Source: an uncultured Acidobacteriota bacterium
GTDB taxonomy: Bacteria; Acidobacteriota; Thermoanaerobaculia; Multivoradales; UBA5704
Direction: 5' to 3'
DNA length: 64,000 bases
Assembly (NCBI GenBank): GCA_963770895.1
Contig: CAVYRF010000002.1
Span: 1,920,001-1,984,000 of the forward strand
The notes below the pieces were generated by a model. That model was not told the DNA's origin, did no database searches, and worked only from the letters and a program-made list of their open reading frames with translations. A program made the translations under genes and the position numbers. Below, one piece after another: positions 3,439-64,000 of this stretch; the first letter of the stretch is position 1; each line of letters opens with the position of its first letter.

Positions 3439-11652
<8,214 letters not shown>

Positions 11653-20913: not shown

Positions 20914-21966
20914 TCAGCCTTCGGCGGGGAGGTACGAGAAGGTCGGACCCGCGTTGGCTCCCGGGTGTCCTGACAGGGGGTTGCGGATCAGCTCCAGCGC
21001 TTTGTACTTGAGCTCGAACATCGTGCCGACAGCCGGCAGGAGAAGGTCCGGGCGGCCGTCGAAGGCGCCCTGGAGCTGGCGCAGGAGATGCGAGTAGATA
21101 CGGTCGAACGCCTGCGAGGCGTCGCGCAGCTCGCCGGGGGGGAAGTCGTCCGGCCGCAGGTCGTGGAGCATCGGGTAGACGGCGGTGTAGTCGACTGGAA
21201 AGGGTTCTCCCCTGGGCTCGTCGAAGCGGCCGTCGTGGACTGCGTGCCGCTGGTCCGCGGCATAGCGGCGCTGGTATTTGATCTCCATGAAGCGGAAGAA
21301 GTGTGCGAGGTCGCCGTCGCCGTCGTACATCGAGTGGGTGTCGCCCTCGCCCTGGTCGATGATCTGATCGAGGGCTTGCCTGGCGGCGGTGAGGTCGTGG
21401 ACCGGGATCACGGAGCCGCCGCCGCCGTAGTAGTGCTCGGGAGCGACCTGGCGCGCGGGGTCGCCGGCGAAGACTGTGCGCTCGCCGAGCCGCTGCACCA
21501 GGGTTGCCAGTCCGTCGACGATCGCCTGGTAGAACTCGCCCACGGTCCGGTAGGGTCCGAGCTCGGCGACCCACAGCGGGGTGGCCGCGTGGCGCTCGGC
21601 GAGCGCCGGCTCGACGTGCGGACGCGAGGGCTCTTCGATCTTCAGAAAGGTTTCGATCGCCGCTGCGGAAAAAGGGAGCAAATGAACCATGAACTGCCGC
21701 TCGCCGTCCGGGAGGTAGGCGGGATAGCGAGGGACGAAGCCGGGCTCGTCGATCCGCAGGCGGCCGTCGACGGCGTTGAGAACGTTGGCCGCAAGGGTCA
21801 TGTGGAGCATCTCCTCGACCAGGACCGAGCGGAGGATCTGCCCCACCTCGTCGTTGCTCCCCGGTTGCAGGGTGTAGTAGGCGCAGAGGTAAGGCGGCAG
21901 CACCGCCAGCTCCAGCTGGACGGCGGCTTTGAGGTGCCGGCGGAGGTCCTCCAGGGTTTCGATCAT
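20914..21966 (-). CDS. Ferritin-like domain protein (VioB-associated ferritin-like family)
   Basis: AVQLELAVLPPYLCAYYTL, VEEMLHM..AANVLNA, IIDQGEG, AHFFRFMEI. ATG overlaps the GMC stop. Confidence 0.85.
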   Translation of the reverse strand: MIETLEDLRRHLKAAVQLELAVLPPYLCAYYTLQPGSNDEVGQILRSVLVEEMLHMTLAANVLNAVDGRLRIDEPGFVPRYPAYLPDGERQFMVHLLPFSAAAIETFLKIEEPSRPHVEPALAERHAATPLWVAELGPYRTVGEFYQAIVDGLATLVQRLGERTVFAGDPARQVAPEHYYGGGGSVIPVHDLTAARQALDQIIDQGEGDTHSMYDGDGDLAHFFRFMEIKYQRRYAADQRHAVHDGRFDEPRGEPFPVDYTAVYPMLHDLRPDDFPPGELRDASQAFDRIYSHLLRQLQGAFDGRPDLLLPAVGTMFELKYKALELIRNPLSGHPGANAGPTFSYLPAEG

Positions 21967-23825: not shown

Positions 23826-23842
23826 CGGTCCCTCGCCGCGGG

Positions 23843-24307
23843 TCAGACGTTGGAATCGTTGCGCGGAGGCTGCGCCCAGGTGCCATAGCCGGGCTGGTTG
23901 GCACCCTGGGCGTGGGTTCCGCCGGCAATCCACATCAGACCCTGCGGGTAGGACTGCGGGGACACCACGCGGGTGACGTCGCCGGGCGACACGCCGTGGG
24001 CATCGCGCCAAGCCTGCGGGAGCTCGTTCCAGCTCCCCACATACCAGAGCGTGATCAGGTTGCGGGCGACAGGTCCGAGCCGGGGATCGCCCAGGATGCG
24101 GGTGCGGATGCCCATGTCGAGGTCCCCTGCCTGCTCGATTTCCGAGAAGGTCCGCAGGAGGTCGGAGGTGACGCCGTCCCCCACCACCTCGATCAGGGTC
24201 TGGAAGTAGGTCTGACCCACGCCGGTGCCCTGGAGCTCGACGGCGGAGAAGCCGGTCAGGGCCACCGAGAGCTCATGGAACGTTTGCAACCGAGGATCGT
24301 CCGCCAT
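23843..24307 (-). CDS. Small subunit of FAD-dependent sugar dehydrogenase (sorbitol/gluconate-2-DH subunit-like)
   Basis: F.ELSVALTGF, ARNLITLWYVGSW, Y.QGLMW..H..G..QPGYGTW. Lies directly upstream of the GMC gene; GGAGG RBS. Confidence 0.8.
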   Translation of the reverse strand: MADDPRLQTFHELSVALTGFSAVELQGTGVGQTYFQTLIEVVGDGVTSDLLRTFSEIEQAGDLDMGIRTRILGDPRLGPVARNLITLWYVGSWNELPQAWRDAHGVSPGDVTRVVSPQSYPQGLMWIAGGTHAQGANQPGYGTWAQPPRNDSNV

Positions 24308-28387: not shown

Positions 28388-29047
28388 TTAGGCGGGCCGC
28401 CGGCGCGTTTCCGCGTCGAGCAGCATCGCCGCGGCGACGAGCGGCTTGGCCCAGGCGGGGGTGGCGCTCAGGTCGCGCGGAGCCACGATCCTCCCGCGCC
28501 TCACGTGCAGGAGGAGCACCAGGATGGGGGCTGCGCCGGCGTGGGGGTCGGCGTCGCCGCTGTTGTCGTAGACGCGCAGCTCCGTCAGCGTGGGTAGGAG
28601 GCGGATCACGTTCAGCCGGCCCGTTTCCCAGCGCCGGCGGATGTCAGCCTCGGCAATGTCGTGCCCGCCCTTGGCGACCCTCGCACGGACGCGCGCCATG
28701 TGCAGCTCCGGGCTGATCAAACCCACGTACCAGACGCGAACTTCGATCCCGAGGGCAGCAGCTCTGGCGAGGAGACCAGGAATGGTAGTCGCGCCAAGCG
28801 TAGACTCGAAGGCGAAGTCGAGCCGGTCGGCGATCGCTCGCTCCAAGAGCCGCCGCCCTTGGTGCCACGCGGCACTGTTCGCCTCGGCTTGGGTCACGCC
28901 AGGATCGGTCGATCGGATCCGCTGCGCGGCCTCGTCCGGGTTGAAGTAGTCCGCGCCGGCCTCGTGGAGCATGGCGCCGCCGAGGCTGCTCTTGCCGGCG
29001 CCGTTCGTCCCGCCGAGGACGTAGATCCGGGGAGGCCGACTAGCCAC
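28388..29047 (-). CDS. Zeta-toxin-like P-loop kinase/ATPase
   Basis: IYVLGGTNGAGKSS, FNPDE, FAFESTL, RVRARVAKGGHDI, VYDNS. GTG start overlaps the antitoxin stop. Confidence 0.85.
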   Translation of the reverse strand: MASRPPRIYVLGGTNGAGKSSLGGAMLHEAGADYFNPDEAAQRIRSTDPGVTQAEANSAAWHQGRRLLERAIADRLDFAFESTLGATTIPGLLARAAALGIEVRVWYVGLISPELHMARVRARVAKGGHDIAEADIRRRWETGRLNVIRLLPTLTELRVYDNSGDADPHAGAAPILVLLLHVRRGRIVAPRDLSATPAWAKPLVAAAMLLDAETRRRPA

Positions 29048-29390
29048 GTTTCTTCGCCGCCGCGACCGCGGACCTGCCGAGCCGGACGGGTGGAGCGTTG
29101 AAGGCGTCGGCCATCCCCTTGCGCGCGGCCGGTGTCTGCATCCGGGCCAGGAGCTCGTCGAACTCGGCGGTGAGTGTGTCGAGCTTCCGCTCACCGGCCG
29201 CCACCAGAGCGTCGAACTCTTTGATTGAAAGCAGTACCGCCCTCGGGGTGTCGCGCCGGGTGATCGCGACGGCGCCCTTCTCGACGGCGGTGTCGAGGAC
29301 GCGACCGAACTCGTTCTTGGCCTCCGTCGCCGTGAACGTCGGCATCGCGACCCGTTCGCCCCCACGATCGTGAAATACTGATTTAGCCAT
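29040..29390 (-). CDS. Phd/YefM-family antitoxin
   Basis: FTATEAKNEFGRVLDTA..GAVAITRRDTPRAVLLS. Confidence 0.88.
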   Translation of the reverse strand: MAKSVFHDRGGERVAMPTFTATEAKNEFGRVLDTAVEKGAVAITRRDTPRAVLLSIKEFDALVAAGERKLDTLTAEFDELLARMQTPAARKGMADAFNAPPVRLGRSAVAAAKKRG

Positions 29391-29407
29391 GATGGCTATT
29401 ATAGCCA
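29384..29407. promoter_or_regulatory. Overlapping palindromes, likely TA autoregulatory operator
   Basis: TAGCCAT-G-ATGGCTA and TGGCTAT-T-ATAGCCA across the antitoxin start codon. Confidence 0.65.
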
Positions 29408-29487
29408 ATCTGGACGATATGCGCCCACGAAAGCTGGACGCGGCATTATGCGAATCGTACGATTGGCCACGTGACCGGGGATCCGCG

Positions 29488-30555
29488 ATGACACGTGAAA
29501 ACCGATTCCTCTCCAGGGCCGCTGCAGGGCTCCTCTTCGCCGTCGCGGCACTCGCCGCGCCGGCTCCGCCAGTGACTTGGCCCGCTTCGCCCGCCAGCCT
29601 CGCAATCCGAGCGGCCGGGCACGGGGATGCGCTGGTGCACAGTGCGATCACCCCGGAGGCGCGCGATCGTGCGGTCGACGCGGTGGCCAAGGGGGTCGCC
29701 GACAACTATGTCTACCCGGAGAAGGGTCGAGCGATGGCGGAGGCGCTGCGCCGGAACCAAGTGCACGGCGACTATGCGGCGATCACCGACGACGGCAAGC
29801 TCGCCGAACGCCTCACGGAGGACCTCCGGTCGGTGAACCACGACCTCCATCTCTCGGTACAGGTCGAGCCTCCGGAGGCTGGAGCTCCGACACCTGGATC
29901 AGGTCCTGATGACGACGGAGCGCGTGACAACTTTGGATTCCGGCGGGTCGAGCTGCTGGACGGCAATATCGGTCTCGTGCGCTTCGACGGCTTCATGAAC
30001 GGGCCGGAGGCGATGCAGACTGCGGACGCCGCGATGGCATTTCTCAAGCACGCCGATGTGCTGATCTTCGATTTGCGGTGGAACCACGGCGGCGATCCAG
30101 TCATGATCCAACGTCTCGCAGGATACCTGTTCAGCAACCGCACCCACCTCAACAGCATGGTCGACCGGACTGGCGCCGTGGTCGATGATTTTTGGACCGG
30201 CAACGTTCCCGGGAAACGCTTCCGCGCCGATCTGCCGGTCTACGTTCTCACCAGCTCGGATACCTTCTCGTGTGCCGAGGAGTTCACCTACGACCTCAAG
30301 AACCTGCGGCGCGCCACGATCGTGGGCGAGACGACGGGCGGCGGCGCGCATCCCGTGATGCCCGTCCGGGTGGATGGCCGCTTCGTCGTGATGGTGCCGT
30401 TTCTCCGCGCCCTCAACCCGGTCACCAAGACGAACTGGGAAGGCGTCGGCGTAGAACCCGACGTCAAGACAACCGCGGACGCAGCCCTCGACAGGGCGCT
30501 TGTCCTCGCACGGGCGGCAGCCCACCCGCAGAGAAGTCCGGCACCTAGGGAATGA
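29488..30555 (+). CDS. S41 family peptidase (secreted)
   Basis: YVYPEKG, DLRWNHGG, TFSCAEEF, IVGETTGGGAHP, NWEGVGVEPD. Confidence 0.92.
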   Translation: MTRENRFLSRAAAGLLFAVAALAAPAPPVTWPASPASLAIRAAGHGDALVHSAITPEARDRAVDAVAKGVADNYVYPEKGRAMAEALRRNQVHGDYAAITDDGKLAERLTEDLRSVNHDLHLSVQVEPPEAGAPTPGSGPDDDGARDNFGFRRVELLDGNIGLVRFDGFMNGPEAMQTADAAMAFLKHADVLIFDLRWNHGGDPVMIQRLAGYLFSNRTHLNSMVDRTGAVVDDFWTGNVPGKRFRADLPVYVLTSSDTFSCAEEFTYDLKNLRRATIVGETTGGGAHPVMPVRVDGRFVVMVPFLRALNPVTKTNWEGVGVEPDVKTTADAALDRALVLARAAAHPQRSPAPRE

Positions 30556-30599: not shown

Positions 30600-50984
<20,385 letters not shown>

Positions 50985-51294
50985 TTGTCGAATAAGCGAT
51001 GTCAGGCCTGCGGCCTGCCGCCCGCTTGCAGCGGCGTCTACTGCTGAAGGTCCCCCACTATAACCAAGGCTGCAGAAGAGGGAGGCGGCAACGACCCTGG
51101 AAGTGGCGTCATTTGACGGTATTCATGCGTCACCGCCGAATGGCGCGGGCAGCTGGCAGGCCGATGGGCCGAGGCGGTGGCGCCTACCACAACTCGGCGA
51201 GCCGCACCCGCCGGTGCCGGGCACCGGCGGCGGTGGAAGGCTGGGGGTCGGAAGGAAGAGTTTTCAGCAGATCACGATGGTGCAGGTGAAGGTG

Positions 51295-51387
51295 CCGCTC
51301 GCGTGCATAGACGCCCAGGCCGACGAGGCCGATGAGCAGGTTGTAACCGCCCGGCCAGGGACCGTCTGTCAGGGCATCCATCAGCAC
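51295..51387 (-). pseudogene. Lanthionine synthetase LanC-like fragment
   Basis: DALTDGPWPGGYNLLIGLVGLGVYARER resembles the LanC (W..)YDLI.GL.G.G.Y.LER repeat; no flanking LanC sequence. Confidence 0.6.
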
Positions 51388-51509
51388 GAACGAGCTGCGC
51401 GGAGCTGCTCAAACGAGACCTGGAAGAGACCGCCTTGGTGCGAGAAGAGGCGGCGCCCAGCGCGCCGCCCAGATCGACATCCCAGAGCCGTGGCCTCAGG
51501 CTACGGCTA

Positions 51510-51689
51510 TCAGCAATACCCCTGGCCACAGAGCGTGGGGCAGGTACAGGTGACGCAGGAGACCGTACAGGCGCAGGTCCTTTCAAACCTGGCCGTGTTG
51601 GCCCCGCCGTTCGCCTGGACGAGATCCGGCGCGCCCAGACCGCGCACCGTATCGCGATTGAGCTGCAGCTTCTTGCGGGTCTTCTTCAC
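51510..51689 (-). CDS. Lanthipeptide-like RiPP precursor 1 (59 aa; absent from ORF track)
   Basis: AGGGAGG RBS, GTG start. MKKTRKKLQLNRDTVRGLGAPDLVQANGG|ANTARFERTCACTVSCVTCTCPTLCGQGYC*. Confidence 0.85.
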   Translation of the reverse strand: MKKTRKKLQLNRDTVRGLGAPDLVQANGGANTARFERTCACTVSCVTCTCPTLCGQGYC

Positions 51690-52064
51690 ATCGCCTCCCT
51701 TGCTAGACCTCGTTCGACGTCGTTGTCAAACGAGGCGCCGCCCGGCAGCGACGCCGCATCCGGCCTGAAGAGCTGCCGGGCCGGCGTCACCAGGGGCCAT
51801 GCCCTGCTCGCCCCCGCATTAACATGCGCACTTGAGCGACAAGAAGTGACATCATCTGCCCGACGGTCAAACCGGTCGCCTGCGCCTGAGGCAGCACCAG
51901 GCGGGAGCCCTGTTTCAAAACGGCGGCACCGGCCGCGATTGCCGGCGGGCTGTCGTCGCTGGGGGCCATCTGCCCCAGCGGGGCGCAGCGGGCTTGCACG
52001 CCCTCAGCAAGCCCGCCACCATGGCGGGCGAGCGCTCAGGGTCATCCTTCGCACGAACCCGCCG

Positions 52065-52772
52065 ATGACCCGAGCCGAGAAAGCGCGCCGCATCTTAGCG
52101 ATCCTCGACGCCCTCTACCCCGAGGTCGCGATCCCCTTACAGCATGCCGATCCCTTCACGCTGCTCGTCGCCGTCGTGCTCTCGGCGCAGACGACCGACA
52201 AGCTGGTCAACGAGGTGACGCCGGCGCTCTTCGCCCGCGCCGCGACACCGCAGGCGATGGCCGCTCTGCCGGTCGAGGAGATCGCGCGGCTCATCCGCCG
52301 CATCGGGCTCACGGCTATGAAGGCGAAGCACTTGAAGCGTCTCTCCGAGATCCTGGTCGCGGAGCATGGCGGCGAGGTGCCGCAGACGTTCGCCGCCCTC
52401 GAAGCGCTCCCCGGCGTCGGCCACAAGACCGCCTCCGTCGTCCTGAACCAGGCCTTCGGTCTCGCCACCTTCGCCGTCGACACCCACATCCATCGCCTCG
52501 CCGCGCGCTGGGGCCTGTCCTCGGGCAGGAACGTGGTGGAGACCGAGCGCGACCTGAAGCGCCTCTTCCCCGAGGACGCCTGGGGCCGCGCGCACCTCGA
52601 GATCATCTACTTCGGCCGCGAATACTGCCCCGCCCTCCGCCACGATCTCGACGCCTGCCCAATCTGCTCCTGGGCCGCGTCTAAAAAACGCAAGGAGGCG
52701 GAGCGGAAGAGGAACCGCGGTCTAGCCCGGCGGCCCGCCCCTAGTGCCCCGAGTCAGAAATTCACACCATAA
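52065..52772 (+). CDS. nth: Endonuclease III
   Basis: PFTLLVAVVLSAQTTDK.VN, HhH LPGVGHKTA, AVDTHIHR, GREYC. Confidence 0.93.
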   Translation: MTRAEKARRILAILDALYPEVAIPLQHADPFTLLVAVVLSAQTTDKLVNEVTPALFARAATPQAMAALPVEEIARLIRRIGLTAMKAKHLKRLSEILVAEHGGEVPQTFAALEALPGVGHKTASVVLNQAFGLATFAVDTHIHRLAARWGLSSGRNVVETERDLKRLFPEDAWGRAHLEIIYFGREYCPALRHDLDACPICSWAASKKRKEAERKRNRGLARRPAPSAPSQKFTP

Positions 52773-53765: not shown

Positions 53766-54583
53766 CTACCCGAATTCAACATCCGTCGGATGATTTTGAC
53801 GCACGACCGTATTGCGATGCACCGACACGAGGGCGGCGCCACCCTCGACAAAGATGCCGCCGCCGCGCCCGCACGGACTGCCGTTGCCAACGATGACACT
53901 ACCACCGAGCTGGACGCCGATCGGTGCGTTGAAATAGATGCCAGCTCCTGCGCACCAAGCAGCGCGCAGGGTATTGTCCGTCACGCGGCTGCGCCACATT
54001 CGCAATTTGCTGCGCTCGCACCAGATCCCACCTCCACGGGCACCGGCCCCAGAATAAACTTCGTTGGCCTGGACGGTGCCGCCGGCAATTTCCACCTGGC
54101 AGTTCTGAAAGAAGAGACCGCCGCCGCCGCCGTGCCGCCGTTCACCACGTTTCCCACGATGGTGGTCTTCTGGATTCGAACGCTTGAATTTCGGCAATAC
54201 ATGCCGGCGCCGAAGAGTTCGTCAGCACCCTCGCCGATACGGTTACCAGCCACGATGGAGTCCTGAAGGCTGAGCGACGAGTTCATCACCCAAAGGCCCC
54301 GGTTGCATGCATTCGAACGGATTTCGACGCCGCTCAGATGAAGGCTCGACCGCTCCACGCAAAGTACCGCCAACCCACCGTCGCCACTGATGGTGACGCC
54401 CCGCCTGGTTAGCAAGGCGCTCTGAATTACAACGTCTTGCTTATCGCGGATGCTCAGGCTCTCTGCATACACCTCAGGCGCCACAACGATGGTGGTGCGA
54501 CCCCTCGCCGCATCGATCGCAGCCTGAATCGTCAGGAACTGCTGTGGGACAAGGAACACCTCGTGTGCAACGGTCGCCGCCAT
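53766..54583 (-). pseudogene. Right-handed beta-helix (pectin-lyase-like) protein, frameshifted
   Basis: VP.QF.TIQAAIDAA..VAP..Y.E in one frame; GGGLF, GGGIW, GGGIF repeats continue in another frame after the GCC run near 54120-54140. Confidence 0.75.
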
Positions 54584-54589
54584 CGGTCG

Positions 54590-55066
54590 CTAGATGCCAG
54601 GACGCTGAACCGCCCCATCGCCGGTGAGAATGCGACGCGCATAGTCGATCTGGCCGAGATGCCAGTTCAGGTGTCCGTAGAGGTGGACGAGAAATGCCTG
54701 CGTCGAAAGGGCCCTTTCGAGCACCACTTGCGGGTACTCGCTCTCCATCTCGGCCGAGGAAAGCCCTTCCAGAACACCAGGAATGAGGGTCGTCAGCTCC
54801 GCAATCCGCGCCCCCAGCTCCGCCCTGCCAATACCCGTTGAGCTGAACTCCATTTCGCGCTGCCGGCTGTACGGCACCTTGCCCAGCTGGCGGCCGATAT
54901 ACTCCCTCAGGTTCCCTTCCAGGTGAAGCACAAGGTTCCCCGGCGAATTGGCGATTCCGGGAAGCCTCTGCCACAGCACCTGGTCATCAGGGAAAGCCTT
55001 GACCTGCTCATAGAGCATGGCGAGGTCGCGCCGAAACAACACCGCAAGGTCTCGCGTGAAGCTCAT
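54590..55066 (-). CDS. DinB/DUF1572-family protein
   Basis: NSPGNLVLHLEGNL..YIG, Y.R.RE.EF, HLYGHLNWHLGQIDY.RR. Confidence 0.88.
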   Translation of the reverse strand: MSFTRDLAVLFRRDLAMLYEQVKAFPDDQVLWQRLPGIANSPGNLVLHLEGNLREYIGRQLGKVPYSRQREMEFSSTGIGRAELGARIAELTTLIPGVLEGLSSAEMESEYPQVVLERALSTQAFLVHLYGHLNWHLGQIDYARRILTGDGAVQRPGI

Positions 55067-55283
55067 GGCAGTTTGAACCGGCCGATAACGCTGCCGTGCT
55101 TGAGGATAGCAGTGTAGGTTCTGGCGGGCATTCGTAGCCTCCGACTCGATCTTAGCACCGGGTGCCAGCGAGGTGCTGACCAGCCAGAAACGAGCCGAAA
55201 ACGCCGTCTCGCCCGGCCCGCACTCGTCACCGGCCGAGAGGGGCGTCTCAGCCGGTGACTCGATGGTTGGAGTAAAGCGGCGG

Positions 55284-55463
55284 TCAGCCGTTGGCGATGG
55301 AGCAGACGTCCTGAGACCAGGTGGTACAGCCGAAGACGCGCTCGGTGGTATAGCAGGCCCACGTTGCGAGCGGGGCGCCGGCGGCAGCGCGCGTGAGCTC
55401 TTGCGGGGTGAGGCGGCGCAGGGATTCACGATGCAGCGGAAGCTTCTGGAGCTGGGTTTTCAT
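55284..55463 (-). CDS. Lanthipeptide-like RiPP precursor 2 (59 aa)
   Basis: MKTQLQKLPLHRESLRRLTPQELTRAAAG|APLATWACYTTERVFGCTTWSQDVCSIANG*; leader matches precursor 1. Confidence 0.75.
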   Translation of the reverse strand: MKTQLQKLPLHRESLRRLTPQELTRAAAGAPLATWACYTTERVFGCTTWSQDVCSIANG

Positions 55464-55773
55464 GAGAGTGGTCTTTCTGGCCTCTGGCCGTTGGTGACGA
55501 GGAGCCGGAACCGCAAGGCGCGTACCATCCCCCGGCGCCTTTCGCCTCCGGGTATAAAACCTTTCGTTTCCAAGAGCTTGGCGTTGTAGAGCGGCCTCCA
55601 GGCATGGATCGGGGTTGAGGTGGAAATGCCAGAGATGAGGCGGCTTCGCCAGAGGCTTCGCTGAGCAGGCCCACGATCCGATACATTTGGACGTAAGTTC
55701 GGTGCCATCGCACGGGTGAAGTTGCGGCATGTGGCTTGCGGTTCAGGGGCGGTGCCGAAACGGATGGAGGAGC

Positions 55774-55970
55774 ATGCGTTCGCTTGTCGATCCGGTCGAG
55801 AGCGCGCGGATGGCGGGCTTGCGCCAGGTGGCCGACGACGGACCAGGGATTCGGCGTCGGCGCCAGGAAGCCGGGTTCAGCTACCGGGATGCGGCGGGAC
55901 GGGTGGTTCACCAACGAAAGGTCCTGCGGCGGATCGCCGGCCTGGCGATCCCTCCGGCCTGGAGGGACCT
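55774..55970 (+). pseudogene. DNA topoisomerase IB N-terminal fragment
   Basis: GGAGGAG RBS; SARMAGLR.V.DD.PGIRRRR...GFSYRD..G......L.RI..LAIPPAW.D, then similarity stops. Confidence 0.8.
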
Positions 55971-56202
55971 GCGGGAGTTCCGCGGACTCGACGCGCCCGC
56001 CCCAAGGCGGCGGCGCCGCAGGACGGCCTCTTGGTCGGAAATCCGGGAACGGCCGCACTGGCGATCGCCTACGCTGCGGGGAGTGTTTACGGTGGACTGG
56101 AACCAGCCGGCGCCCGATGGCTCTGGAAAGCCGCTCACCCGAACGAGGTGGTCGCCACCGTCGCCGCGGAACCGGCCTCCGTGGTCAGGTCGCCCACCGC
56201 CC

Positions 56203-57064
56203 TCAGAAGCGCATGGCTGGTCTTGCCGTGGCTGACGCCACGTCTGTCGAAAGGCTCACGTCCCACCACTGCGCGCCCTCGGCCGCCCGCGTTTTCTCGG
56301 CTTCGGCGGCGAAGCGAACCGCGTCGCTACCGATCAAGAGGTGCGCCGGAAGACGGTCACTGGATGCCAGACGAAGCACAACCTGAGCTACCTTGGCGGG
56401 ATCACTGATCTCTTTCCCCCAATACGATTTCAAGGCCTTGGCAACGGCCCCGACGGAGGGTTCATAGTCCGGGAGCAGTTCCGGCGTGGCCTGATTGGCT
56501 CGGGCGCCCCAATTCGTCCGCATGCCACCGGGTTCGAGGGCGCACACCTTCACGCCGAACGGGGACAGCTCCTGGGCAAGAGATTCCGTGAAGCCTCCGA
56601 CAGCCCATTTCGCTGCATGGTACGGCGTGCTGCCGGGCCGAGTCAGGCGGCCGCCGACCGATGATATCTGGAGGATGCAGCCGCTCCTTTGCTCGCGCAT
56701 GAGCGGTACGGCCGCACGGGTGACGTTAACCACGCCATAGAAGTTGGTATCCATCACCGCCTTGAACCTCTCCGCGCTCAGCTGTTCGAACGGCGCGATA
56801 TCGCCGTACCCGGCGTTGTTCACGACGACGTCGAGACGTCCAAATGTGGCCATCGCCATCTGCACGGCGGCCTGAGCGGCGCTTTCATCTGTCACGTCAA
56901 GAGGAACCGCGCGAACGCGATCGCCGTATTTGTTTACCAAGTCATCGAGTCGCTTTGGGTCGCGTGCCGTGGCGACGAGGCGATCGCCGGATTCGAGCAC
57001 GGCTTCCGCGATGTCTCGGCCCAAACCGCTCGCACTGCCCAGTCACTAACCACACTTTATTCAT
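56203..57064 (-). pseudogene. Short-chain dehydrogenase/reductase, +1 frameshift near start
   Basis: GGAGG then MNKVWLVTG; an extra base at 57038-57040 separates it from SASGLGRDIA. Also NNAGYG and YHAAK. Confidence 0.85.
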
Positions 57065-57089
57065 CACCTCCTACCTTTCTTCCGTGCGC

Positions 57090-58113
57090 CTATTGCCTGG
57101 GTTCAGATCGTGGGAGCACTGCCCTCAACTGAGAGGGTGTCGTCCCTTCCCACGTTCGGAAGGCTCGATAGAAAGAATTCGAATCCTCGTAGCCGAGCAG
57201 AAATGCCACTTCCGTGACATCCATCTCCGGCCGATTGAGATACTCGTGCGCCAGTTCCTGCCGCGCCTCAAGAAGCAACTGCCGGAAAGTTGCGCCGTCA
57301 TCGATGATTCGCCGCTGCAAAGTCCGATCGCTCAACCCGAGTTCGCGAGCCACGGCCAATATCTTCGGCCGGCTTCCCGCGAGCAGGCGCTTGAGAATCC
57401 ATTTCACCTGCTCACTGATCGAGCTCTGCGCGCGGCGCTCTTCAAGTGCGCGTTCGAGTTGCGGATTCAGCATGTCAAAGCAACTCGGCATTGTAGGTAA
57501 GGAATGGCCGATCGAGATCGGTCGCGTGCAGGACGAGCGCATTCCGTCGCGCTCCGAACGTGATTGGGCCTTTAAAATAGGCTTCGTGGAAGCCGGTCGC
57601 CTCCGCGCTGCGCTTCAGCTCGACCCTTTTCGCCGTCACAAAATGTCCTGTGCCGCGGCGACCAAGTTCAACGAACGAGACAAAGGCGGCGTCTGTCAAC
57701 AGAGTCGGGGTTTCTTCCTGCGCGTGCAGCCACACAGGCTCGATCACGCACTCGTCCTTGCTCACTTTGATTTGCAGTTCCTCGGGCGAGCACAGTTCCT
57801 TGAAGCGAGCAAGGCGGGTGAGGGCGTCTCGGTAGTCGCGGGCGTAATAGGCCGCCATAGTTGACGGTGGCCGATTGCCAACGTCGATCTGAGTGGCGAT
57901 TTTTAGGCCCGCGGCCGGATCGGCGGAGAGCTCGCCTACGGCACGCCAGAGTGCGAAGAACTGAGCCGTCGTGACCAGGTTCTTCTTGCCGTCGTAAACA
58001 GTCAGCGGCAACCGAGCTTGGCTCAGCACGGCTGTTGGCGTAAGTCCGATCTTAGCGAGCCCTATCCAAAAGGCGTTCGCGGCTTTGAAAAGGTCTGGCA
58101 CATGGACGGTCAT
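57090..58113 (-). pseudogene. AraC-family transcriptional regulator, frameshifted
   Basis: Ligand-binding part ends ..NAELL*; HTH part (LSDRTLQRR, VAFLLGYEDSNSFYRAFRTWEGTTP) is in another frame. Extra T near 57477-57480. Confidence 0.85.
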
Positions 58114-58170
58114 TTTTTTCTCGCCGGTATTTCATCTGGAAGCAATCGCGCTGTCAGGACATCCCTCAGG

Positions 58171-58326
58171 TTAGCCGATTATCGCTTTGGGTTCCAGGTA
58201 CTCCTGCAGCCCGAAAATCCCGCCTTCGCGATCGACGACCTGGGTTCCATGGAGAGTGACGAATTGACCGTTGATGTAGGCACGATCAAAAGCTTTTACT
58301 GGAGTCGGGGTTGCTTGTCCGTTCAT
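58171..58326 (-). pseudogene. Aldehyde dehydrogenase remnant with internal deletion
   Basis: N-terminal YINGQFVTLHG fused directly to C-terminal REGGIFGLQEYLEPKAI. Confidence 0.75.
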
Positions 58327-58570
58327 TTGTCTCACCTTTATGACGTTCAGCGTTAACAAGGTCGCCGTGTCCTTCAGGGGGCCCCAGCCACAATTCCATT
58401 CTGGCTGAATAAGGTCGGCGTGTAACTAGCAAAAGACGCCAGCTCTCTCGCAAAATATGCCAAACGATCTATTGCTCGCATGGTCCCTTGTAGTCCCCAA
58501 CTTGTTTGGCATCACCGGATGGCTTAGGGAGGTATAACCGAAAGTCGTGTTTGAGGGGGTACGCCGCCTT

Positions 58571-58612
58571 CGCCTCCGCCATCGCTTGACCCTTCTCCGG
58601 GTAGACATAGTT
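58571..58612 (-). repeat. 42-bp copy of S41 peptidase internal sequence
   Basis: Reverse complement matches 29704-29745 at 41/42 positions. Confidence 0.9.
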
Positions 58613-58752
58613 CGCGGTCTCGCCGGCCGGCGCGATCCACTGGACGGGGCCGTCCTCGCCGGACCGGAAGGTGGTGCGCAAGGCCTCGTGGCGCTCCAGC
58701 AGCGCGGCGAAGGCCGCCTCCAGGGCGGCGACGGAAAGCTTTCCCGCCAGGA
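58613..58752 (-). pseudogene. NRPS condensation-domain fragment
   Basis: LAGKLSVAALEAAFAALLERHEALRTTFRSGEDGPVQWIAP. Confidence 0.8.
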
Positions 58753-58774
58753 GGTCGGAAGGCTCATCTACGAC

Positions 58775-59002
58775 ATGGCCGTCGAAACGACCAGCTTCCC
58801 CGACGAAGACTCGATCACCCGCGCCGAGCTGCGGGCCGCGGCTGCCGAGCTGCGCTTCGTCGAAGGCTTCCTGCGCTCCGTGCGCAAGTCCGCCCAGGAT
58901 TCGTGCCTGGAACCGGCCGACGACGACCTGGCCCACTTCGCCGGCAAGCTCGCCGGAAAGGTGGGCAACGTGGCCGGCGAGATCGAAGGAGAGCTGTCAT
59001 GA
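58775..59002 (+). CDS. Hypothetical helical protein (possibly 5'-truncated)
   Basis: GC-rich coding pattern; stop overlaps the next ATG. Confidence 0.5.
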   Translation: MAVETTSFPDEDSITRAELRAAAAELRFVEGFLRSVRKSAQDSCLEPADDDLAHFAGKLAGKVGNVAGEIEGELS

Positions 59003-59481
59003 ACGGCCAGCCCCTGGTGAGGGTAGGGAGAACCCGAGACGCCGACGAAGCGCAGCTCATTGGGCTAGCGATCTTGAAACTCCGCCGAGAATCCGGCATC
59101 ACCCTGCGGCAGCTTGCCGCGCAGGCTGGGTGTACCTCGACGGCCCTGACCCAATACGAGCAGGGCAGCCGCCAGCCAAGTGCGCCCACCCTCCAGCGCA
59201 TCGTGGCAGCGATGGGCTTCACCCTGACGGATCTTTACCGAGCCCAGCAAAGCACCGCTGGCCAGGGAGGCCCGCCGGAAGATGGCACCCTACCGCCGGA
59301 TACCCGGACGCCGCCGGCGAGATCCCACAAGGACACCCTGCGGCTGGCTCAGGAGTGCGGCAAAGCCGTGGCGCACTGCTGCCTGGCCTTCATGGAGCTA
59401 CAGTCCGGGACCTGGCGCGCCCGAGGTGCCGGCGCCACCACCGCTGCGTCCGCCGCCACGCCGGCACTGGAGGCCGAATGA
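58999..59481 (+). CDS. XRE-family helix-turn-helix protein
   Basis: LRRESGITLRQLAAQAG....ALTQYEQGSRQPS...LQRI. Confidence 0.85.
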   Translation: MNGQPLVRVGRTRDADEAQLIGLAILKLRRESGITLRQLAAQAGCTSTALTQYEQGSRQPSAPTLQRIVAAMGFTLTDLYRAQQSTAGQGGPPEDGTLPPDTRTPPARSHKDTLRLAQECGKAVAHCCLAFMELQSGTWRARGAGATTAASAATPALEAE

Positions 59482-59777
59482 CCATGGGCCAATTCGACAC
59501 GGTGAACGTGGACGTGCTCTCGGCGGCCTTCCAGACCCAGCAACTCGGCGAGGGCATGCTGACCTACCGCCTGCGCGCTGACGGCCGCCTGGTGGCCCCT
59601 TGCGGCGTCGTGGTCGCCTACCACGGACTGCTCCACCTGATGGGCGAGGACGGCGCCGAGTTCATGGCCATCTTCACGCACGGGAGCCTGGAATCGCTCG
59701 ACCCCCTGGTCGAAGAAGTCTCCGACGTGTACCGGTTGCTGGGCCGCGGTTTCCTGTGGGCGCGGCACTCCTGGTGA
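59478..59777 (+). CDS. Hypothetical protein
   Basis: ATGA-coupled to the XRE gene; MGQFDTV..FQT..L..Y......G.L pattern. Confidence 0.6.
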   Translation: MTMGQFDTVNVDVLSAAFQTQQLGEGMLTYRLRADGRLVAPCGVVVAYHGLLHLMGEDGAEFMAIFTHGSLESLDPLVEEVSDVYRLLGRGFLWARHSW

Positions 59778-59791
59778 CCTGATAATTCCCG

Positions 59792-59834
59792 GCCAGCCGG
59801 CGAGGCGATCGTTTCCCACGCCTCGCCGGCTGGC
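59792..59834. terminator. 16-bp perfect stem hairpin between convergent units
   Basis: GCCAGCCGGCGAGGCG-n11-CGCCTCGCCGGCTGGC. Confidence 0.6.
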
Positions 59835-59939
59835 AGGCGCCGGAAGCGCCCCCGGCGAGTCATGCCTGCAAGTACGACCCGTCAGCCAGTCTGCACCCGG
59901 GGGGCGATGAACAGCCGGGTTCCAGCTGGTGGTGCGGAT

Positions 59940-60227
59940 CTAGGCAGCCGAGAGGCGCTTGACGCGCAGCGAGGCGCGCTTCTTCTCGGCCTGCCAGAGG
60001 TCGTATTGAAGCTGCTGGTCAAGCCAACTCTCGGCTGTGGTGTTGAACGCCAGCGAGAGCCGGACCGCCATCTCGGGGCTGATCCCCGACCGGCCGTTGA
60101 TGATCGCCGAAAGCGTCCTACGGCTCACTCCCAACCCATCCGCGGCGGCGGTGACAGTTAGGCCGAGCGGCTCCAGGCAGAAAGACTTGAGCACTTCTCC
60201 GGGATGCGGTGGGTGGTGCATCTTCAT
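59940..60227 (-). CDS. higA: HigA antitoxin
   Basis: [33 protein letters not shown]...ISPEMAVRL....W...Q..YDL. Confidence 0.93.
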
Positions 60228-60239
60228 TGGTGCCGCTCC

Positions 60240-60521
60240 TTAATGATAATCCTCGTAGTCCACCTGGTCCGCGTCGCTTCCGACGAATACGAACGTGACC
60301 CGCCAGTTGCCGCTCACGCGGACGGACCAAGTTCCCCGACGGTCTCCCTTTAGGGGATGCAGTTGAAGGCCCGGTAGGCCCATGTCTCTCGGCTCCCTGG
60401 CCACGTTGAGCCTGCCTAAGATGAGCCTCAGCCGGTCTGCATGTTCGGCTTGGACTTTGGAGGCTTTCCCCGCAGTAAAAAGGAGTTCGAGGCCTTTATG
60501 CCGGAAGCTGCGGATAGTCAC
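60240..60521 (-). CDS. higB: HigB (RelE/ParE) toxin
   Basis: IRSFRHKGL, LHPLKGDRRG.WSVRVSGNWRVTF, VDYEDYH; toxin gene upstream of antitoxin. Confidence 0.93.
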   Translation of the reverse strand: MTIRSFRHKGLELLFTAGKASKVQAEHADRLRLILGRLNVAREPRDMGLPGLQLHPLKGDRRGTWSVRVSGNWRVTFVFVGSDADQVDYEDYH

Positions 60522-60848
60522 TTCAGGAGTGTAACCCTTCCCTTCTCAGTCTGCAAGTCGTTGGCGACGCCACCCCCAAATTCGCATGCCGTTTTGTCGA
60601 AGCGGCAGAGGTAACCCGAGTAGCGGTTTCCCGGCGCATCCAGGCCCGCGATCTCACCTGCGACGTGCACCGCACTCTACGCGGCAGGACCGACCTGAGG
60701 CTGTTGTGCACGTGCTGGCGATCGTAGAAGCAGTTGACATGGCGCCGCCGACGCTATCGCGGCTGCCGCAACCGCCGCCGCCACAGGTTATATAATGGGC
60801 CGGCATAAGCAGGATACCGCATCCCAAGGACCGCGGTAGGAGGACGGA

Positions 60849-61412
60849 ATGGCTACAGTAGAGCACGCTACTCTGTTCCATGTGAGTCGGATTATTCGCC
60901 GTCCCGGCGAGGAGGTGGCGCCAATTGCTGACGTGTCACATTTCGTTAGGAACCAACTGACTACTCCGTTGGGGCGCCGAATTGAGGAAGTCCTCGAGCG
61001 CGAGCGACCCGCAGCATGTGTTTCGCGGCACAAGGCACACTATGCCTGTCTCGAACTTCCAGAATGCGCCGCGTTCATGAGTGGTGAGGACGGGCGCAAC
61101 TCTCGCTCTTCCTCGGCCGCTCCGCTTCATTTTTACCGGGTTTTGATGGAGCGCGCAAGTAAGTCGCCCATAGCTCTGGTTGACGGCGTAGGGAGACATC
61201 TTGAGGATGCCGAGGCCCTTTCAGCCATCATAAGTGAGTACTGGGCTCCGAGGCTTGATTGGGATTTCTATGAATACCTCGGGCTTGCTATGACTATTAT
61301 CCGAGAAGTAGAGTCCCCGGATATTGCAGATGAAAGCGCAGCGCGGTTCGCATATGGAAGAGACCGAGAAAAGTGCTTGAGGCAGTGGCCTGATCGCAAG
61401 GCTCTTGGGTGA
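60849..61412 (+). CDS. Hypothetical protein, DUF2441/ADP-ribosyltransferase-like
   Basis: AGGAGG RBS; lower GC; early His and E.VLERERP...SR...Y pattern. Confidence 0.55.
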   Translation: MATVEHATLFHVSRIIRRPGEEVAPIADVSHFVRNQLTTPLGRRIEEVLERERPAACVSRHKAHYACLELPECAAFMSGEDGRNSRSSSAAPLHFYRVLMERASKSPIALVDGVGRHLEDAEALSAIISEYWAPRLDWDFYEYLGLAMTIIREVESPDIADESAARFAYGRDREKCLRQWPDRKALG

Positions 61413-61903
61413 CGATGGCGCGCTGTTAGGTGCAAGGTTGTACGGAAATCGAATCCTCGCAACAGACGGTGGCGCTTCCTCATTAGGGTCCCCCCCTCAT
61501 CCTCTATGCCAGCACTTGCCCTGAACGTATTTGCGGCTTAGGGAATGCCGCTCGCGACGACTTGCGAGTCGCTGTCCTCCGAGCGATCAGGCCGAGGTCA
61601 ATCCCAACTGGTAGGAATGAGGGCTCTCTCATTGTCCTCGACCACCCACGCCGCGCACGCTGATCGGAGGTGCAGAGGCGTGGTTTTTCCTCACCCTGGC
61701 GGTCGGCCGGATGTGCTCGAGCCAGCTCTGCGATGTCTCGCCCCCTCCTCAAAGTGGCTGTCTGCCATGCTAGGCCTTGCCCTCCTCCACCTCGAAGAGT
61801 ACTGTTCCATTTACCGCAGATCGGTGTGCGGCACATCCCGGACTTGGCCAGTTTGTCGCTACAATGAGTACCACGGTGGCGGACGCCCCGCTGCGGACCT
61901 CAC

Positions 61904-62248
61904 ATGGCAAGGGAAATCGGCAGGCTTGCCGACAAAGACGGTAACGAGTTCGAACGCCTATGGCTGGTGTCATTGGCTTTGCGCGCGCTGGCCGGCGAAA
62001 TCACCTCGTTGCACTGGGAGCGCGCCGGCGAGATCGGATTCGGCATCGAGTGTGAGGTCACCTTCCCCGACGGGCGGCGCCAGGTTCACCAGTGCAAGAT
62101 CGAGAACGGCGCCCTGGGCCGCTGGTCGGCCGCTGACCTCGCGGCGGCGGGCGTTCTGGATGCCGCCCTTCGCCACCTTCAGAGACCAGGAGTCGCGGAG
62201 TTCGTCTTTGTCTCCCGCGACCCCGTCCTGGTGCTGCGCGACCTGGGC
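61904..62248 (+). pseudogene. Truncated N-terminal restriction-endonuclease-like domain (defence/STAND-type protein remnant)
   Basis: G..ADK.GN.FE..W, G.E.....QCK, W...DL...GVL, FVFVS; frame then enters unrelated sequence. Confidence 0.6.
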
Positions 62249-62392
62249 GTGCCCCCCTTGGGGATCGCGTCGAGAAGGAAGAGGTACTGGCCCCAGAAGT
62301 CCCGCTGCTGTCGCGGTGTCCCGACCACCTTCTTGTTCCGCCGCAGCACCACGTGCCCCCCGCCCCGCCGCCCCCGCCCCCCAACGCAAGCA

Positions 62393-62693
62393 TGGGCTAT
62401 GGAAGGTGCCGCGCCTGATGGAAACCGCGGACCCAACAGGGGGCCGCCCGCGTCGCTGCGCTCCGCTGCCGCCCGCCCCCGCGGCCCCCGGTCCGCCGTT
62501 TCCACAGTCGCTTGCAAACCGGCTCCCGGCCCCCCACCACACCCGCCCTCTACCTACCGCCCTCGCCGGTTAGCACACCTCCCACAGCCCCGGCGGCGAC
62601 GGCTCATGTAGACTCTTCTTGAAGGACCAAACCCGCTGAGGGTGGGTCACTTTCCAGTCGTTGCCCTGGGTCACTTTCCGAGCGTTGCCAGCA
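62393..62693 (+). mobile_element. IS21-family-like terminal remnant
   Basis: Tandem 24-bp TGGGTCACTTTCC-n3-CGTTGCC repeats (62643-62690) ending near CA; upstream TGGAAACCGCGGAC/GTCCGCCGTTTCCA inverted repeat; no transposase. Confidence 0.6.
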
Positions 62694-63405
62694 GGAGGTG
62701 CGGCGAGCCAGACCGCGCCGGACCGCCCCGAGCGACGGCTCTGAAGCTGCCCCTCGGAGATCACCTCTTTAGTATGCCAGATATCGCACCTCATGAGTAT
62801 GCAAAAAGAGTAGCACGCATTTCCGGTCTCCGCCAAGCGCCGCCGCGCCTTACGTCGGCTCCTGCTAGAGGCCCACGGTAACGCGCTCGGCGTCCTCGTC
62901 AGAGGGTGCGCCGCCAGACTACCGGGACAACGGCCATTGCCATCATTGGCTGGCCCTGACGTGCATGCTTCTGAAGATGCGGAAGGTTTAGGCCGCCAGC
63001 TATGGGCCTATCCTCGCCAGGCTGAGTAGCGGGCGCCGGTCGTGGGGTTGGTGGACCCGAGCAGCGCGGGTAGCTCGCTGGCGCGTTAGACGGGGCGCAG
63101 CTCGCCGGGGGGGCCACCTGGGCGTTGTTGCTTGCGTAGATGACGACGTTGCCAAGGACCCGCTTCGCACAACGACGACGAGGGGGGCGTAGCGACATTG
63201 TCCAGCTTTACGGCAAGCGCGCCCCGAGTGGCGAGAACCATTCCGCGAGACGGGCGGGAGCGATCAGATGCAGCTCCTGGCTCCAGGAGGTTTGGGTTCG
63301 TCAGAAAGACCCGCCGCTGACACCGCGGACGCCTCTGCGCTGTCGCTGTGTCCGGTGACCTGCTCCCCGCTGGAGCGCTATACTGAACGGGGGGGTGTAG
63401 ATGCG

Positions 63406-63642
63406 ATGGTGTACCACGGAACAGTAAAGGGTGGCGCAATTGTGCTTGATCCCGGTGTCAAGCTGCCAGACGGAGCGACAGTGCGCGTGGAGTTTGACCC
63501 GCCGGAGGGCTCGCCGAGCGGCGCCGGCGACGATCCGCTCCTGAAGATGGTCGAGCTGGCTGTCGAGACCGGCATCCCGGACCTCGCCACCAATGCCGAT
63601 CACTACCTCTACGGCCATCCCAAGGCGAGCGATGCCGGCTGA
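63406..63642 (+). CDS. Putative antitoxin (DUF104/VapB-like)
   Basis: YHGTVKGGAIVLD...LPDG..V.V and DLA.N.DHYLYG; overlaps the PIN gene. Confidence 0.75.
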   Translation: MVYHGTVKGGAIVLDPGVKLPDGATVRVEFDPPEGSPSGAGDDPLLKMVELAVETGIPDLATNADHYLYGHPKASDAG

Positions 63643-64000
63643 GGCCGTGTTTCTCGATACCAACGGCTGGCTGGCTCTGCTGAACTCCTCCGATCTACTC
63701 CATTCCGCTGCGCGCCAGGCTTGGGCAAGCCTGGTAGCCCGACAGCGCCGGGTCGTTCTTACCGATTGGATCGTCGCGGAAACCGGGAACGGCTTGGCTA
63801 AGAGCCGCGGACGGGAGCAGTTTGTGGCCGCTGTGGGTCTTCTTCGCGCCAGCCCAAGGGTGGAACTGCTCCAGGTCTCCCCGCCGCTTCTCGACCGCGC
63901 CCTTGCGCTCTACGCGCGGAGGGCCGACAAGTATTGGGGATTGGTGGATTGCGCGAGCTTCGTGGTCATGGAGGACATGGGGATATCGCAAGCCTTCACC
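63632..64000 (+). CDS. vapC: PIN-domain VapC toxin (runs off window)
   Basis: MPAEAVFLDTNGWLAL..D..H, TDWIVAET, WGLVDCASFVVM...GI..AFT. Confidence 0.88.
   Translation, partial: MPAEAVFLDTNGWLALLNSSDLLHSAARQAWASLVARQRRVVLTDWIVAETGNGLAKSRGREQFVAAVGLLRASPRVELLQVSPPLLDRALALYARRADKYWGLVDCASFVVMEDMGISQAFT

Follow-up and report, generated by a model that had tools for sequence, protein, structure and literature searches.

Can a short peptide gene be assigned to a class of modified peptides when no modifying enzyme is encoded in its vicinity? The question is raised by a 59-codon frame on the minus strand of a 64-kb stretch of DNA from Thermoanaerobaculia, a class of the Acidobacteriota (the whole 64,000-nucleotide stretch that was analysed is called the window here). 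Its product has the look of a class I lanthipeptide precursor, and the answer depends on whether the frame is a gene at all, on what its leader and core have in common with related peptides, and on where its modifying enzymes and its regulator might be encoded. The parts of the gene are as follows.

51510..51689, minus strand: open reading frame with a GTG start, 59 codons (59 aa) and a TGA stop
51510..51512, minus strand: the TGA stop codon, as read from the sequence
51603..51689, minus strand: leader peptide, residues 1-29 (MKKTRKKLQLNRDTVRGLGAPDLVQANGG), from the GTG start to a Gly-Gly end
51513..51602, minus strand: core peptide, residues 30-59, with 7 Cys, 7 Ser/Thr and the tail TCPTLCGQGYC

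Translation of 51510..51689 yields the peptide quoted in the initial annotation, which had therefore placed the frame correctly, and the clear ribosome-binding site that it claimed is present as the Shine-Dalgarno (SD) sequence AAGGGAGG at 51701-51694 on the minus strand, 4 nt 5' of the GTG. Its further statement that the gene was unannotated and missed by the ORF track has to be withdrawn, since the exact 59-aa protein already occurs in NCBI- and ENA-sourced protein sets, on a contig of 5,832,828 bp. The three codon positions differ in GC content (0.53/0.58/0.82; the window as a whole has 70.6% GC) in the direction expected of a coding frame, which is weak evidence for a frame of only 59 codons. 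Much more comes from the relatives. An exhaustive HMMER search with the single peptide against 1.84 billion representative proteins (threshold E ≤ 1e-3) returned 46 matches, 37 of which are proteins of 50-95 aa aligned over their full length; the other nine (811-3295 aa, with 7-14 short matching stretches each) were set aside as compositional. A word-indexed homology search with the same single peptide returned only the peptide itself, and a profile of 38 sequences (the window peptide and its 37 relatives; alignment A1) retrieved 131 proteins at E ≤ 1e-3. All 37 short relatives share the leader pattern MKKxxKKLxLNRETLRxL...GG followed by a Cys/Thr-rich core, and the tail CPTxCGQ(W)YC, as found in the window peptide, is common to many of them.

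Five related loci (L001-L005), all from Thermoanaerobaculia/Acidobacteriota MAGs, were fetched with a 10-sequence alignment and with the C-terminal motif as the search pattern; they sample the CPTxCGQxY sub-branch only, and the genome of the window is not one of the five. Codon alignments of seven copies gave dN/dS values of 0.31-0.88, below 1 in 21/21 pairs, with dS near saturation. Mean pairwise identity in a further alignment (A2) was 0.52 for the leader, 0.28 for the mid-core and 0.78 for the tail, the last value being inflated by the choice of A2 for the C-terminal motif. Across the aligned family, the leader and the C-terminal motif are thus kept and the mid-core is variable. Because 37 short relatives align over their full length, dN/dS stays below 1 in every pair, third-position GC reaches 0.82, and an SD sequence and hairpins accompany the frame, 51510..51689 is a real precursor-type gene.

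The peptide divides into leader and core as had been proposed for it. The leader motif L8-x-L10-x-R12-x5-L18 fits LxLx[K/R]x5L, and the leader closes with G28-G29, the double-glycine end of leader peptides that are exported by C39-peptidase ABC transporters, with G28 at least 90% conserved in A1. The 30-residue core holds equal numbers of Cys (7, at residues 39, 41, 45, 48, 50, 54 and 59) and Ser/Thr (7, at residues 32, 38, 42, 44, 47, 49 and 52), and hence enough Ser/Thr to at least match its Cys. A second protein of the same cluster at 90% identity or more (P0159), encoded on another contig, shows seven differences, none of which affects a core Cys, Ser or Thr. Leaders of the LxLxKx5L type ending in Gly-Gly are described for class I LanA precursors of Bacteroidetes in those parts of Walker et al. 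(2020; PMC7268733) that deal with this group; the same parts report that a C39 protease is often encoded in these clusters and that the family was found by requiring a LanC gene within seven genes.

Does the window peptide belong to that family? Its sole NCBIfam match is NF038153 (lant_leader_L1a, 'class I lanthipeptide'), with E = 0.005 and 16.9 bits, and it runs over residues 1-29 and over model positions 1-32 of 32; the curated cut-off of 22 bits is not reached. A search of the Pfam-A copy used gave no match. Among the 38 aligned members, NF038153 is matched by 27 at E ≤ 0.01 (best 1.3e-8), TIGR04149 by eight (E ≤ 0.01), NF038158 by two and TIGR03892 by one. Neighbours in the ESM Atlas at 0.86 are clusters carrying PF28317 (Lant_leader_dom), which serve as leads only, and NCBI names two of the relatives (P0064 and P0148) 'class I lanthipeptide' and others 'hypothetical protein'. 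The peptide would then be a near miss by a divergent member, and its place in the NF038153/PF28317 family is probable, but not established in the strict sense, because the model cut-off is missed and LanB and LanC are not clustered with it. The original label of a lanthipeptide-like precursor stands in part: a precursor-type gene, NF038153 as the only match and fitting Ser/Thr and Cys counts speak for it, and the score below 22 bits speaks against it.

Perhaps the chemistry can be read from the cores of the family at large. Leader and core could be parsed in 128 of 146 short family proteins, the 18 without a recognisable motif or cut site being dropped; the cut is heuristic and the sequences are related, so that the counts which follow are not independent. 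Ser+Thr equals or exceeds Cys in 126/128 cores. Subtracting Cys from Ser+Thr gives a distribution with a sharp edge at zero (1, 1, 36, 33, 27, 15... cores for -2, -1, 0, 1, 2, 3), and exact equality occurs in 36 cores against a permutation mean of 17.2, a number reached in 0/5000 permutations. Ser or Thr immediately preceding Cys is also enriched (256 observed, 161 in shuffles). The floor at zero is expected if each Cys needs a dehydrated Ser/Thr partner, and the counts fit one thioether per Cys, i.e. lanthionine. Odd Cys counts are as common as even ones (66 and 62 of the 128 cores, with no bias either way), which argues against an all-disulfide peptide.

If lanthionine rings are formed, the enzymes have to come from somewhere, and the surroundings of the gene were searched for them. 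The window contains, among several other ordinary genes and one for a GNAT acetyltransferase, the following features.

39-50984, minus strand: three NRPS genes with, in all, 8 AMP-binding, 12 condensation and 9 carrier stretches
within 51435-52772, plus strand: endonuclease III domains, from the domain scan
21963-24011, minus strand: GMC oxidoreductase, with generic GMC matches only
11948-14572: MacB/FtsX-type permease, from the domain scan

Three scans were made: the first covered 29 proteins including the three NRPS genes (the largest of them in two halves, which makes four of the 29), the first two also took in 46 further selected ORFs, and the third took every stop-to-stop frame of 120 aa or more that lies beyond the NRPS genes, 136 in total. 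None of them found a LanB, LanC, LanM, LanKC, YcaO, radical-SAM or C39 domain in the 64-kb window, where the permease is the only transporter part. The 56 ORFs around L001-L005 held no lanthipeptide enzyme, YcaO or C39 domain either, and gave a single radical-SAM match, a methyltransferase in L004. Hence LanB and LanC are absent from the neighbourhood of the gene both in the window and in the five related loci, and the window peptide is an orphan precursor with no maturase nearby, the chemistry of which has to be inferred. A stretch in the frame 51184-51387 (minus strand), which we took to resemble LanC repeats, was considered as a LanC remnant and rejected, as Pfam gave nothing at E ≤ 0.01 and a PDB sequence search an unrelated reductase (E = 1.1).

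An NRPS gene lies downstream of the peptide gene both in the window (about 0.5 kb away) and in L005 (1.3 kb). A link between the two was tried and rejected: the two NRPS genes begin with differing domains, and at the DNA level they are alike only in generic NRPS stretches. The adjacency is unexplained and is not counted as evidence.

The account that we consider somewhat better than evenly balanced is that of an independently transcribed precursor of a RiPP (a peptide made by the ribosome and then modified by enzymes) which falls within a branch of the LxLxKx5L/Gly-Gly leader family centred on Thermoanaerobaculia, is modified in trans by a class I dehydratase and cyclase to carry lanthionine rings, and is expressed through an alternative sigma factor. 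On this account, the 29-residue leader would recruit maturases from other parts of the genome, the likeliest being a class I dehydratase of the LanB type, intact or split, together with a LanC cyclase. Ser and Thr residues would be dehydrated and each of the seven Cys added to one of them, so that the 30-residue core could carry as many as seven (methyl)lanthionine rings. A C39-type peptidase/ABC exporter would then cut the leader after Gly-Gly. Transcription would probably depend on an alternative sigma factor, for which an ECF sigma associated with a Ser/Thr kinase, like that of L003 and L004 (see below), is a candidate.

How well do other chemistries account for the same peptide? It may belong to a different RiPP class with the same leader, in which radical SAM (rSAM) enzymes encoded elsewhere would introduce C-methyl groups or thioethers of the sactionine or ranthionine type. 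A third, more distant family member in L004 (19247-19444, minus strand) indeed lies directly upstream of the methyltransferase gene just mentioned, the product of which is a RiPP-maturation radical SAM C-methyltransferase (TIGR03975, 717.5 bits against a cut-off of 281.85), and the model matched by eight of the 38 relatives, TIGR04149, is that of an 'rSAM-modified RiPP'. In view of that L004 gene pair, the leader type is not specific to lanthipeptides and serves more than one maturation system; the motif and the Gly-Gly site themselves are as the initial annotation gave them. For the window peptide itself, however, TIGR04149 gave no match even at E ≤ 10, no rSAM gene is found in the window, and the rSAM-linked copy of L004 lacks the CPTxCGQxYC tail. 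Moreover, rSAM thioethers do not require Ser or Thr, so that the floor in Ser+Thr seen in 126/128 cores would be left unexplained, and we regard an rSAM product as unlikely.

Alternatively, the core might not be modified enzymatically at all, the mature product being a plain or disulfide-bonded secreted peptide, such as a toxin or signal resembling class II bacteriocins, with the Gly-Gly leader used for export only. Double-glycine leaders are treated as general export signals in the relevant parts of PMC7268733, no maturase is encoded near any of the six CPTxCGQxYC-type loci, and the position of the gene in L003 and L004, directly upstream of a sigma/kinase-TPR pair, is one in which a signal peptide would make sense. 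This view has to contend with the odd number of Cys in the window peptide (7) and with the equal frequency of odd and even Cys counts in the family, which is unexpected for all-disulfide folds; it offers no explanation for the Ser+Thr floor, and the C39 exporter on which it would call is likewise absent nearby. We consider it decidedly unlikely.

In a third alternative, a YcaO-type enzyme or a GMC-family oxidase would convert Cys residues to thiazol(in)es, with or without additional lanthionines. There is precedent for it in Thermoanaerobaculia, where, according to the sections of PMC13083261 on the tha and the clusters, the GMC oxidases ThaO and TheO make thiazoles in Cys-rich precursors. The window has a GMC oxidoreductase gene of its own, one of the 38 relatives matches a thiazolylpeptide precursor model (TIGR03892), and the enrichment of Ser/Thr immediately preceding Cys could be read in the same sense. 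The GMC gene, however, lies some 27 kb away, past a 20-kb NRPS gene, and is recognised by generic GMC models only; those sections place the modified site at a Gly-Cys motif, in a cluster of the LanM type, and YcaO is absent from the window. An azole-containing or mixed product would therefore come as a surprise. As for the frame being a chance ORF in a GC-rich intergenic region and no gene at all, its mere 59 codons, the abundance of spurious ORFs at 70.6% GC and an empty sigma-70 consensus promoter scan may be cited in its favour, but the conservation data (37 short relatives aligned over their full length out of 1.84 billion proteins, the best at E = 1e-9; dN/dS below 1 throughout; SD, start and stop positions kept across six loci of differing context) contradict it and make it extremely improbable.

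Returning to the precursor matured in trans by class I enzymes, how would such a gene be expressed without an operon around it? The following features flank it.

51822..51851, minus strand: promoter-like motif TGTCAC-N17-CGCATGT (candidate -35/-10), a match to a conserved pattern
51690..51815, minus strand: predicted 5' UTR of about 125 nt with two hairpins and the SD sequence AAGGGAGG (51694-51701), its start placed from the motif
51441..51508, minus strand: two hairpins past the stop (51486-51508 and 51449-51469), from folding

The pattern TGTCMY-N17-CGCATNT was drawn from aligned upstream regions as two conserved hexamer-like blocks at a fixed spacing. It has a single exact match in the 64 kb (0.01 expected) and seven matches in L001-L005, all on the coding strand and each 70-136 nt 5' of a family start codon; six of these eight sites were those from which the pattern had been derived, and two are independent of the derivation, namely that of the L003 tandem copy (9664-9885) and that at 8702-8731 in L004. 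The latter precedes a gene for a secreted repeat protein of 335 aa that shares its first 15 residues with the leader. With up to two mismatches, the window holds nine matches against 11 expected, none of them 5' of the paralog described below. A scan for sigma-70 consensus promoters found none, and the only terminator-like site that came with that scan lies on the plus strand, inside the ORF, and was discarded. The conserved motif would function as the promoter of an alternative, possibly ECF-type, sigma factor.

Two hairpins had been noted upstream of the gene, and both were recovered, at 51708-51735 (arms 51708-51718/51725-51735, 11 nt, 91% complementary) and at 51740-51781 (arms 51740-51749/51772-51781, 10 nt, 100% complementary). 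The 121-nt upstream RNA folds with -63.8 kcal/mol (z = -3.39; 1/200 shuffles as good), and an alternative pairing, seen in the inverted-repeat list and in the MFE fold, covers the SD sequence. At the DNA level, the window and L002 are 74% identical over 220 nt (51851-51636), and the two have an extra 5' UTR hairpin of about 60 nt in common. The core of the SD-proximal hairpin, GGAC-N6-GTCC, is kept in 8/8 upstream regions. A conserved RNA element is nevertheless not claimed, given that only one of the four pairs of the consensus fold covaries and that five of the eight individual UTRs fold no better than their shuffles (z = -0.51 to +1.32); the SD-proximal hairpin could equally be a protein-binding palindrome. 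Rfam returned for 50900-52200 only a sub-threshold match to P24 sRNA (18 bits against a gathering score of 100).

Past the stop codon, CUCUUCUC follows the GC-rich stem of the second hairpin (51449-51469), which looks like a terminator; a comparable structure, a strong GC-rich hairpin with a pyrimidine or U-rich tract behind it, stands after the stop in 6/6 loci (the window and L001-L005). The neighbouring genes vary from locus to locus around this recurring cassette, and the unit of promoter, UTR, ORF and terminator hence behaves, by its distribution, as a self-contained module.

Several loci carry more than one copy. The A1 profile, run against all frames of the window, found a second, more distant family member.

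55284..55463, minus strand: second family member (A1 profile, E = 1.1e-12)

It has 59 aa, an ATG start, a leader ending in AAG, three core Cys, a GC content by codon position of 0.60/0.58/0.80 and a strong hairpin after it (z = -3.30); its exact protein, too, is in the NCBI/ENA-derived sets. An NCBIfam search of this paralog gave no match, and the promoter motif is absent 5' of it even when two mismatches are allowed. There are thus two copies in the window, two in tandem in L003, and two peptides plus the long protein with the leader-derived start in L004.

In L003 and L004, and only there among the loci, the peptide is directly followed by genes for an ECF sigma factor (PF07638; TIGR02999, 182 bits) and a Ser/Thr kinase-TPR protein, with terminator-like hairpins between the peptide and the sigma gene in both; no sigma factor or kinase gene was found in the window. 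Association with a kinase is a hallmark of group ECF43, the sigma factors of which are activated by phosphorylation, as set out in the portion of PMC13147305 on that group, and ECF sigma factors often auto-regulate their own locus, which makes their target promoters predictable (PMC7826278, in its account of ECF targets). The sigma sequences of the two loci read DTTV where that portion of PMC13147305 has a QTTA-type replacement of the acidic DxxD motif, which, on our reading, is weak evidence. By analogy with L003 and L004, the conserved motif may be the target of a kinase-associated ECF sigma factor of this kind.

It is conceivable, if on the improbable side, that these observations belong together as a dispersed library, in which stand-alone cassettes, all with the same dedicated promoter, structured 5' UTR and terminator, are co-activated by a kinase-gated ECF sigma factor, while a single promiscuous set of enzymes matures their products in trans. 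To take the idea further, the peptide that heads the sigma/kinase-TPR locus may itself be the signal sensed by the kinase.

What would follow if the peptide were indeed a lanthipeptide? It would have a 30-residue core with up to seven thioether rings, from a group, the Thermoanaerobaculia, which is now mined for new peptide chemistry, as PMC13083261 indicates. Precursors of this kind would be missed by cluster-based genome mining, since no enzyme is encoded nearby; with the shared promoter motif as a guide, every copy in a genome could be located simply, and perhaps the regulator too, and the bookkeeping of Ser/Thr and Cys across the family provides an argument for thioether chemistry that needs nothing beyond sequences.

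Among known systems, the gene resembles in its workings the class I precursor family with LxLxKx5L/GG leaders (NF038153, PF28317, pinensin-type; PMC7268733 in the parts on that family), to which it probably belongs as a divergent member. It shares with these precursors the L-x-L-x-R-x5-L motif and Gly-Gly end, a full-length match to the 32-position leader model, and a core rich in Cys and in Ser/Thr with Ser+Thr at least equal to Cys. It differs in scoring under the model cut-off and in its C-terminal motif CPTxCGQ(W)YC, which, like the other core motif strings, was absent from the literature searched; nor was a description of the subfamily found in the literature on lanthipeptides of Acidobacteria/Thermoanaerobaculia. 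Furthermore, whereas the family as described in those parts of PMC7268733 belongs to Bacteroidetes and has LanC nearby, the branch discussed here is, to judge from the five related loci, one of Acidobacteriota (Thermoanaerobaculia), and the window peptide has no clustered LanB/LanC or C39 gene.

The precursors associated with TIGR04149 (GG_sam_targ_CFB) and TIGR03975 likewise have a basic N-terminus, a KKLxLxKETL-type motif and a Gly-Gly end, and the family touches them through its eight TIGR04149 matches and the one relative that adjoins a TIGR03975 enzyme; the window peptide differs from them in having neither a TIGR04149 match nor an rSAM gene in its window. ThaA and TheA, likened here by their description in the cluster sections of PMC13083261, come from the same bacterial class and also combine an N-terminal leader with a Cys-rich core, and they differ in that their clusters also encode a class II synthetase and a GMC oxidase, whereas the window peptide has no LanM nearby.

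For the arrangement of the genes, a parallel is provided by the prochlorosins, with which the family shares a conserved leader joined to a hypervariable core (here 52% identity in the leader and 28% in the mid-core, in A2) and the presence of several copies per genome (here two in the window, two in L003, and two plus the long protein in L004). Prochlorosins have Nif11-type leaders, are made by a LanM enzyme and occur in cyanobacteria, whereas the present leader is of class I type and any enzyme putative. As class II peptides whose numerous and diverse precursors are encoded a long way from one shared synthetase, they share with the window peptide its stand-alone position and set the precedent for a remote arrangement of precursor and synthetase (PMC7268733, in the part on these peptides). 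The dispersed library, if true, would amount to a class I version of the prochlorosin system in Acidobacteriota, with signalling as an added input.

Within window positions 51692-51737 (-), the segment CGCCTCGTTTG has two possible pairing partners, namely the hairpin arm at 51708-51718 and the Shine-Dalgarno (SD) region CAAGGGAGGCG of the gene encoding the lanthipeptide-type precursor (51510-51689 (-)). Because it can pair with either, two mutually exclusive folds arise at this site, which could act as a gate on translation of the window peptide gene.

Relatives of this peptide are encoded at other loci in Thermoanaerobaculia/Acidobacteriota MAGs, two of which (L003 and L004) carry the following features:

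L003 9664-9885 and 10001-10204 (+), a tandem pair of family precursors, both preceded by a separate copy of the promoter-like motif TGTCMY-N17-CGCATNT
L004 19247-19444 (-), a peptide-family member directly upstream of the TIGR03975 gene
L004 17166-19235 (-), a TIGR03975 RiPP-maturation radical SAM C-methyltransferase (717.5 bits)
L004 8702-9810 (+), a protein of 335 aa, predicted to be secreted, that contains DWDG-type repeats and has a tail rich in Cys

The precursor and methyltransferase genes at L004 together look like a compact RiPP cluster with the leader type of the window peptide. Downstream of the tandem precursors of L003 come genes for an ECF sigma factor and a kinase-TPR protein, an arrangement that recurs in the sigma/kinase pair after the precursor at L004. 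The 335-aa protein opens with residues 1-15 of the peptide leader, and its gene shares the promoter motif and SD region of the peptide cassettes, which gives the look of a fusion between a precursor cassette and a different gene.

The window itself encodes a second 59-aa peptide of the same family (55284-55463 (-)), a more distant relative, whose leader ends in AAG and which contains 3 Cys; its SD is weak, its downstream hairpin is strong, and a search for the promoter motif at this gene returned no copy. A DinB/mycothiol-S-transferase-like ORF (within 54590-55429 (-)) comes after it. The paralog lies in a stretch (54000-64000) where GC falls to 0.60-0.67, versus 0.70-0.76 in the NRPS region, and where many frames have no family matches; others are:

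55720-56232 (+), a topoisomerase IB N-terminal fragment
58555-59478 (+), an XRE-type HTH frame

A gene for a PIN-domain protein at the end of the window (63593-64000 (+)) and a Zeta-toxin/AAA_33 kinase-like gene beside a Phd/YefM antitoxin-like frame (28391-29705 (-)) are probable toxin-antitoxin modules.

The window also carries NRPS genes:

39-50984 (-), three consecutive NRPS genes of 1122, 2825 and 6794 aa

Together they contain 8 adenylation, 12 condensation and 9 carrier stretches, and the window peptide gene lies ~0.5 kb upstream of the largest. At L005, another related locus, an NRPS is found 1.3 kb downstream of the peptide, with a different domain order. Distant from the window NRPS genes, 58472-58996 (-) contains a lone, short match to the beginning of an NRPS condensation domain (positions 35-89 of the 456-position profile), possibly a gene fragment. 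Within 20914-24011 (-), a GMC-family oxidoreductase (21963-24011) adjoins a Ferritin-like (PF12902) protein; for Thermoanaerobaculia, a recent report (PMC13083261) describes GMC oxidases that form thiazoles in Cys-rich peptides.
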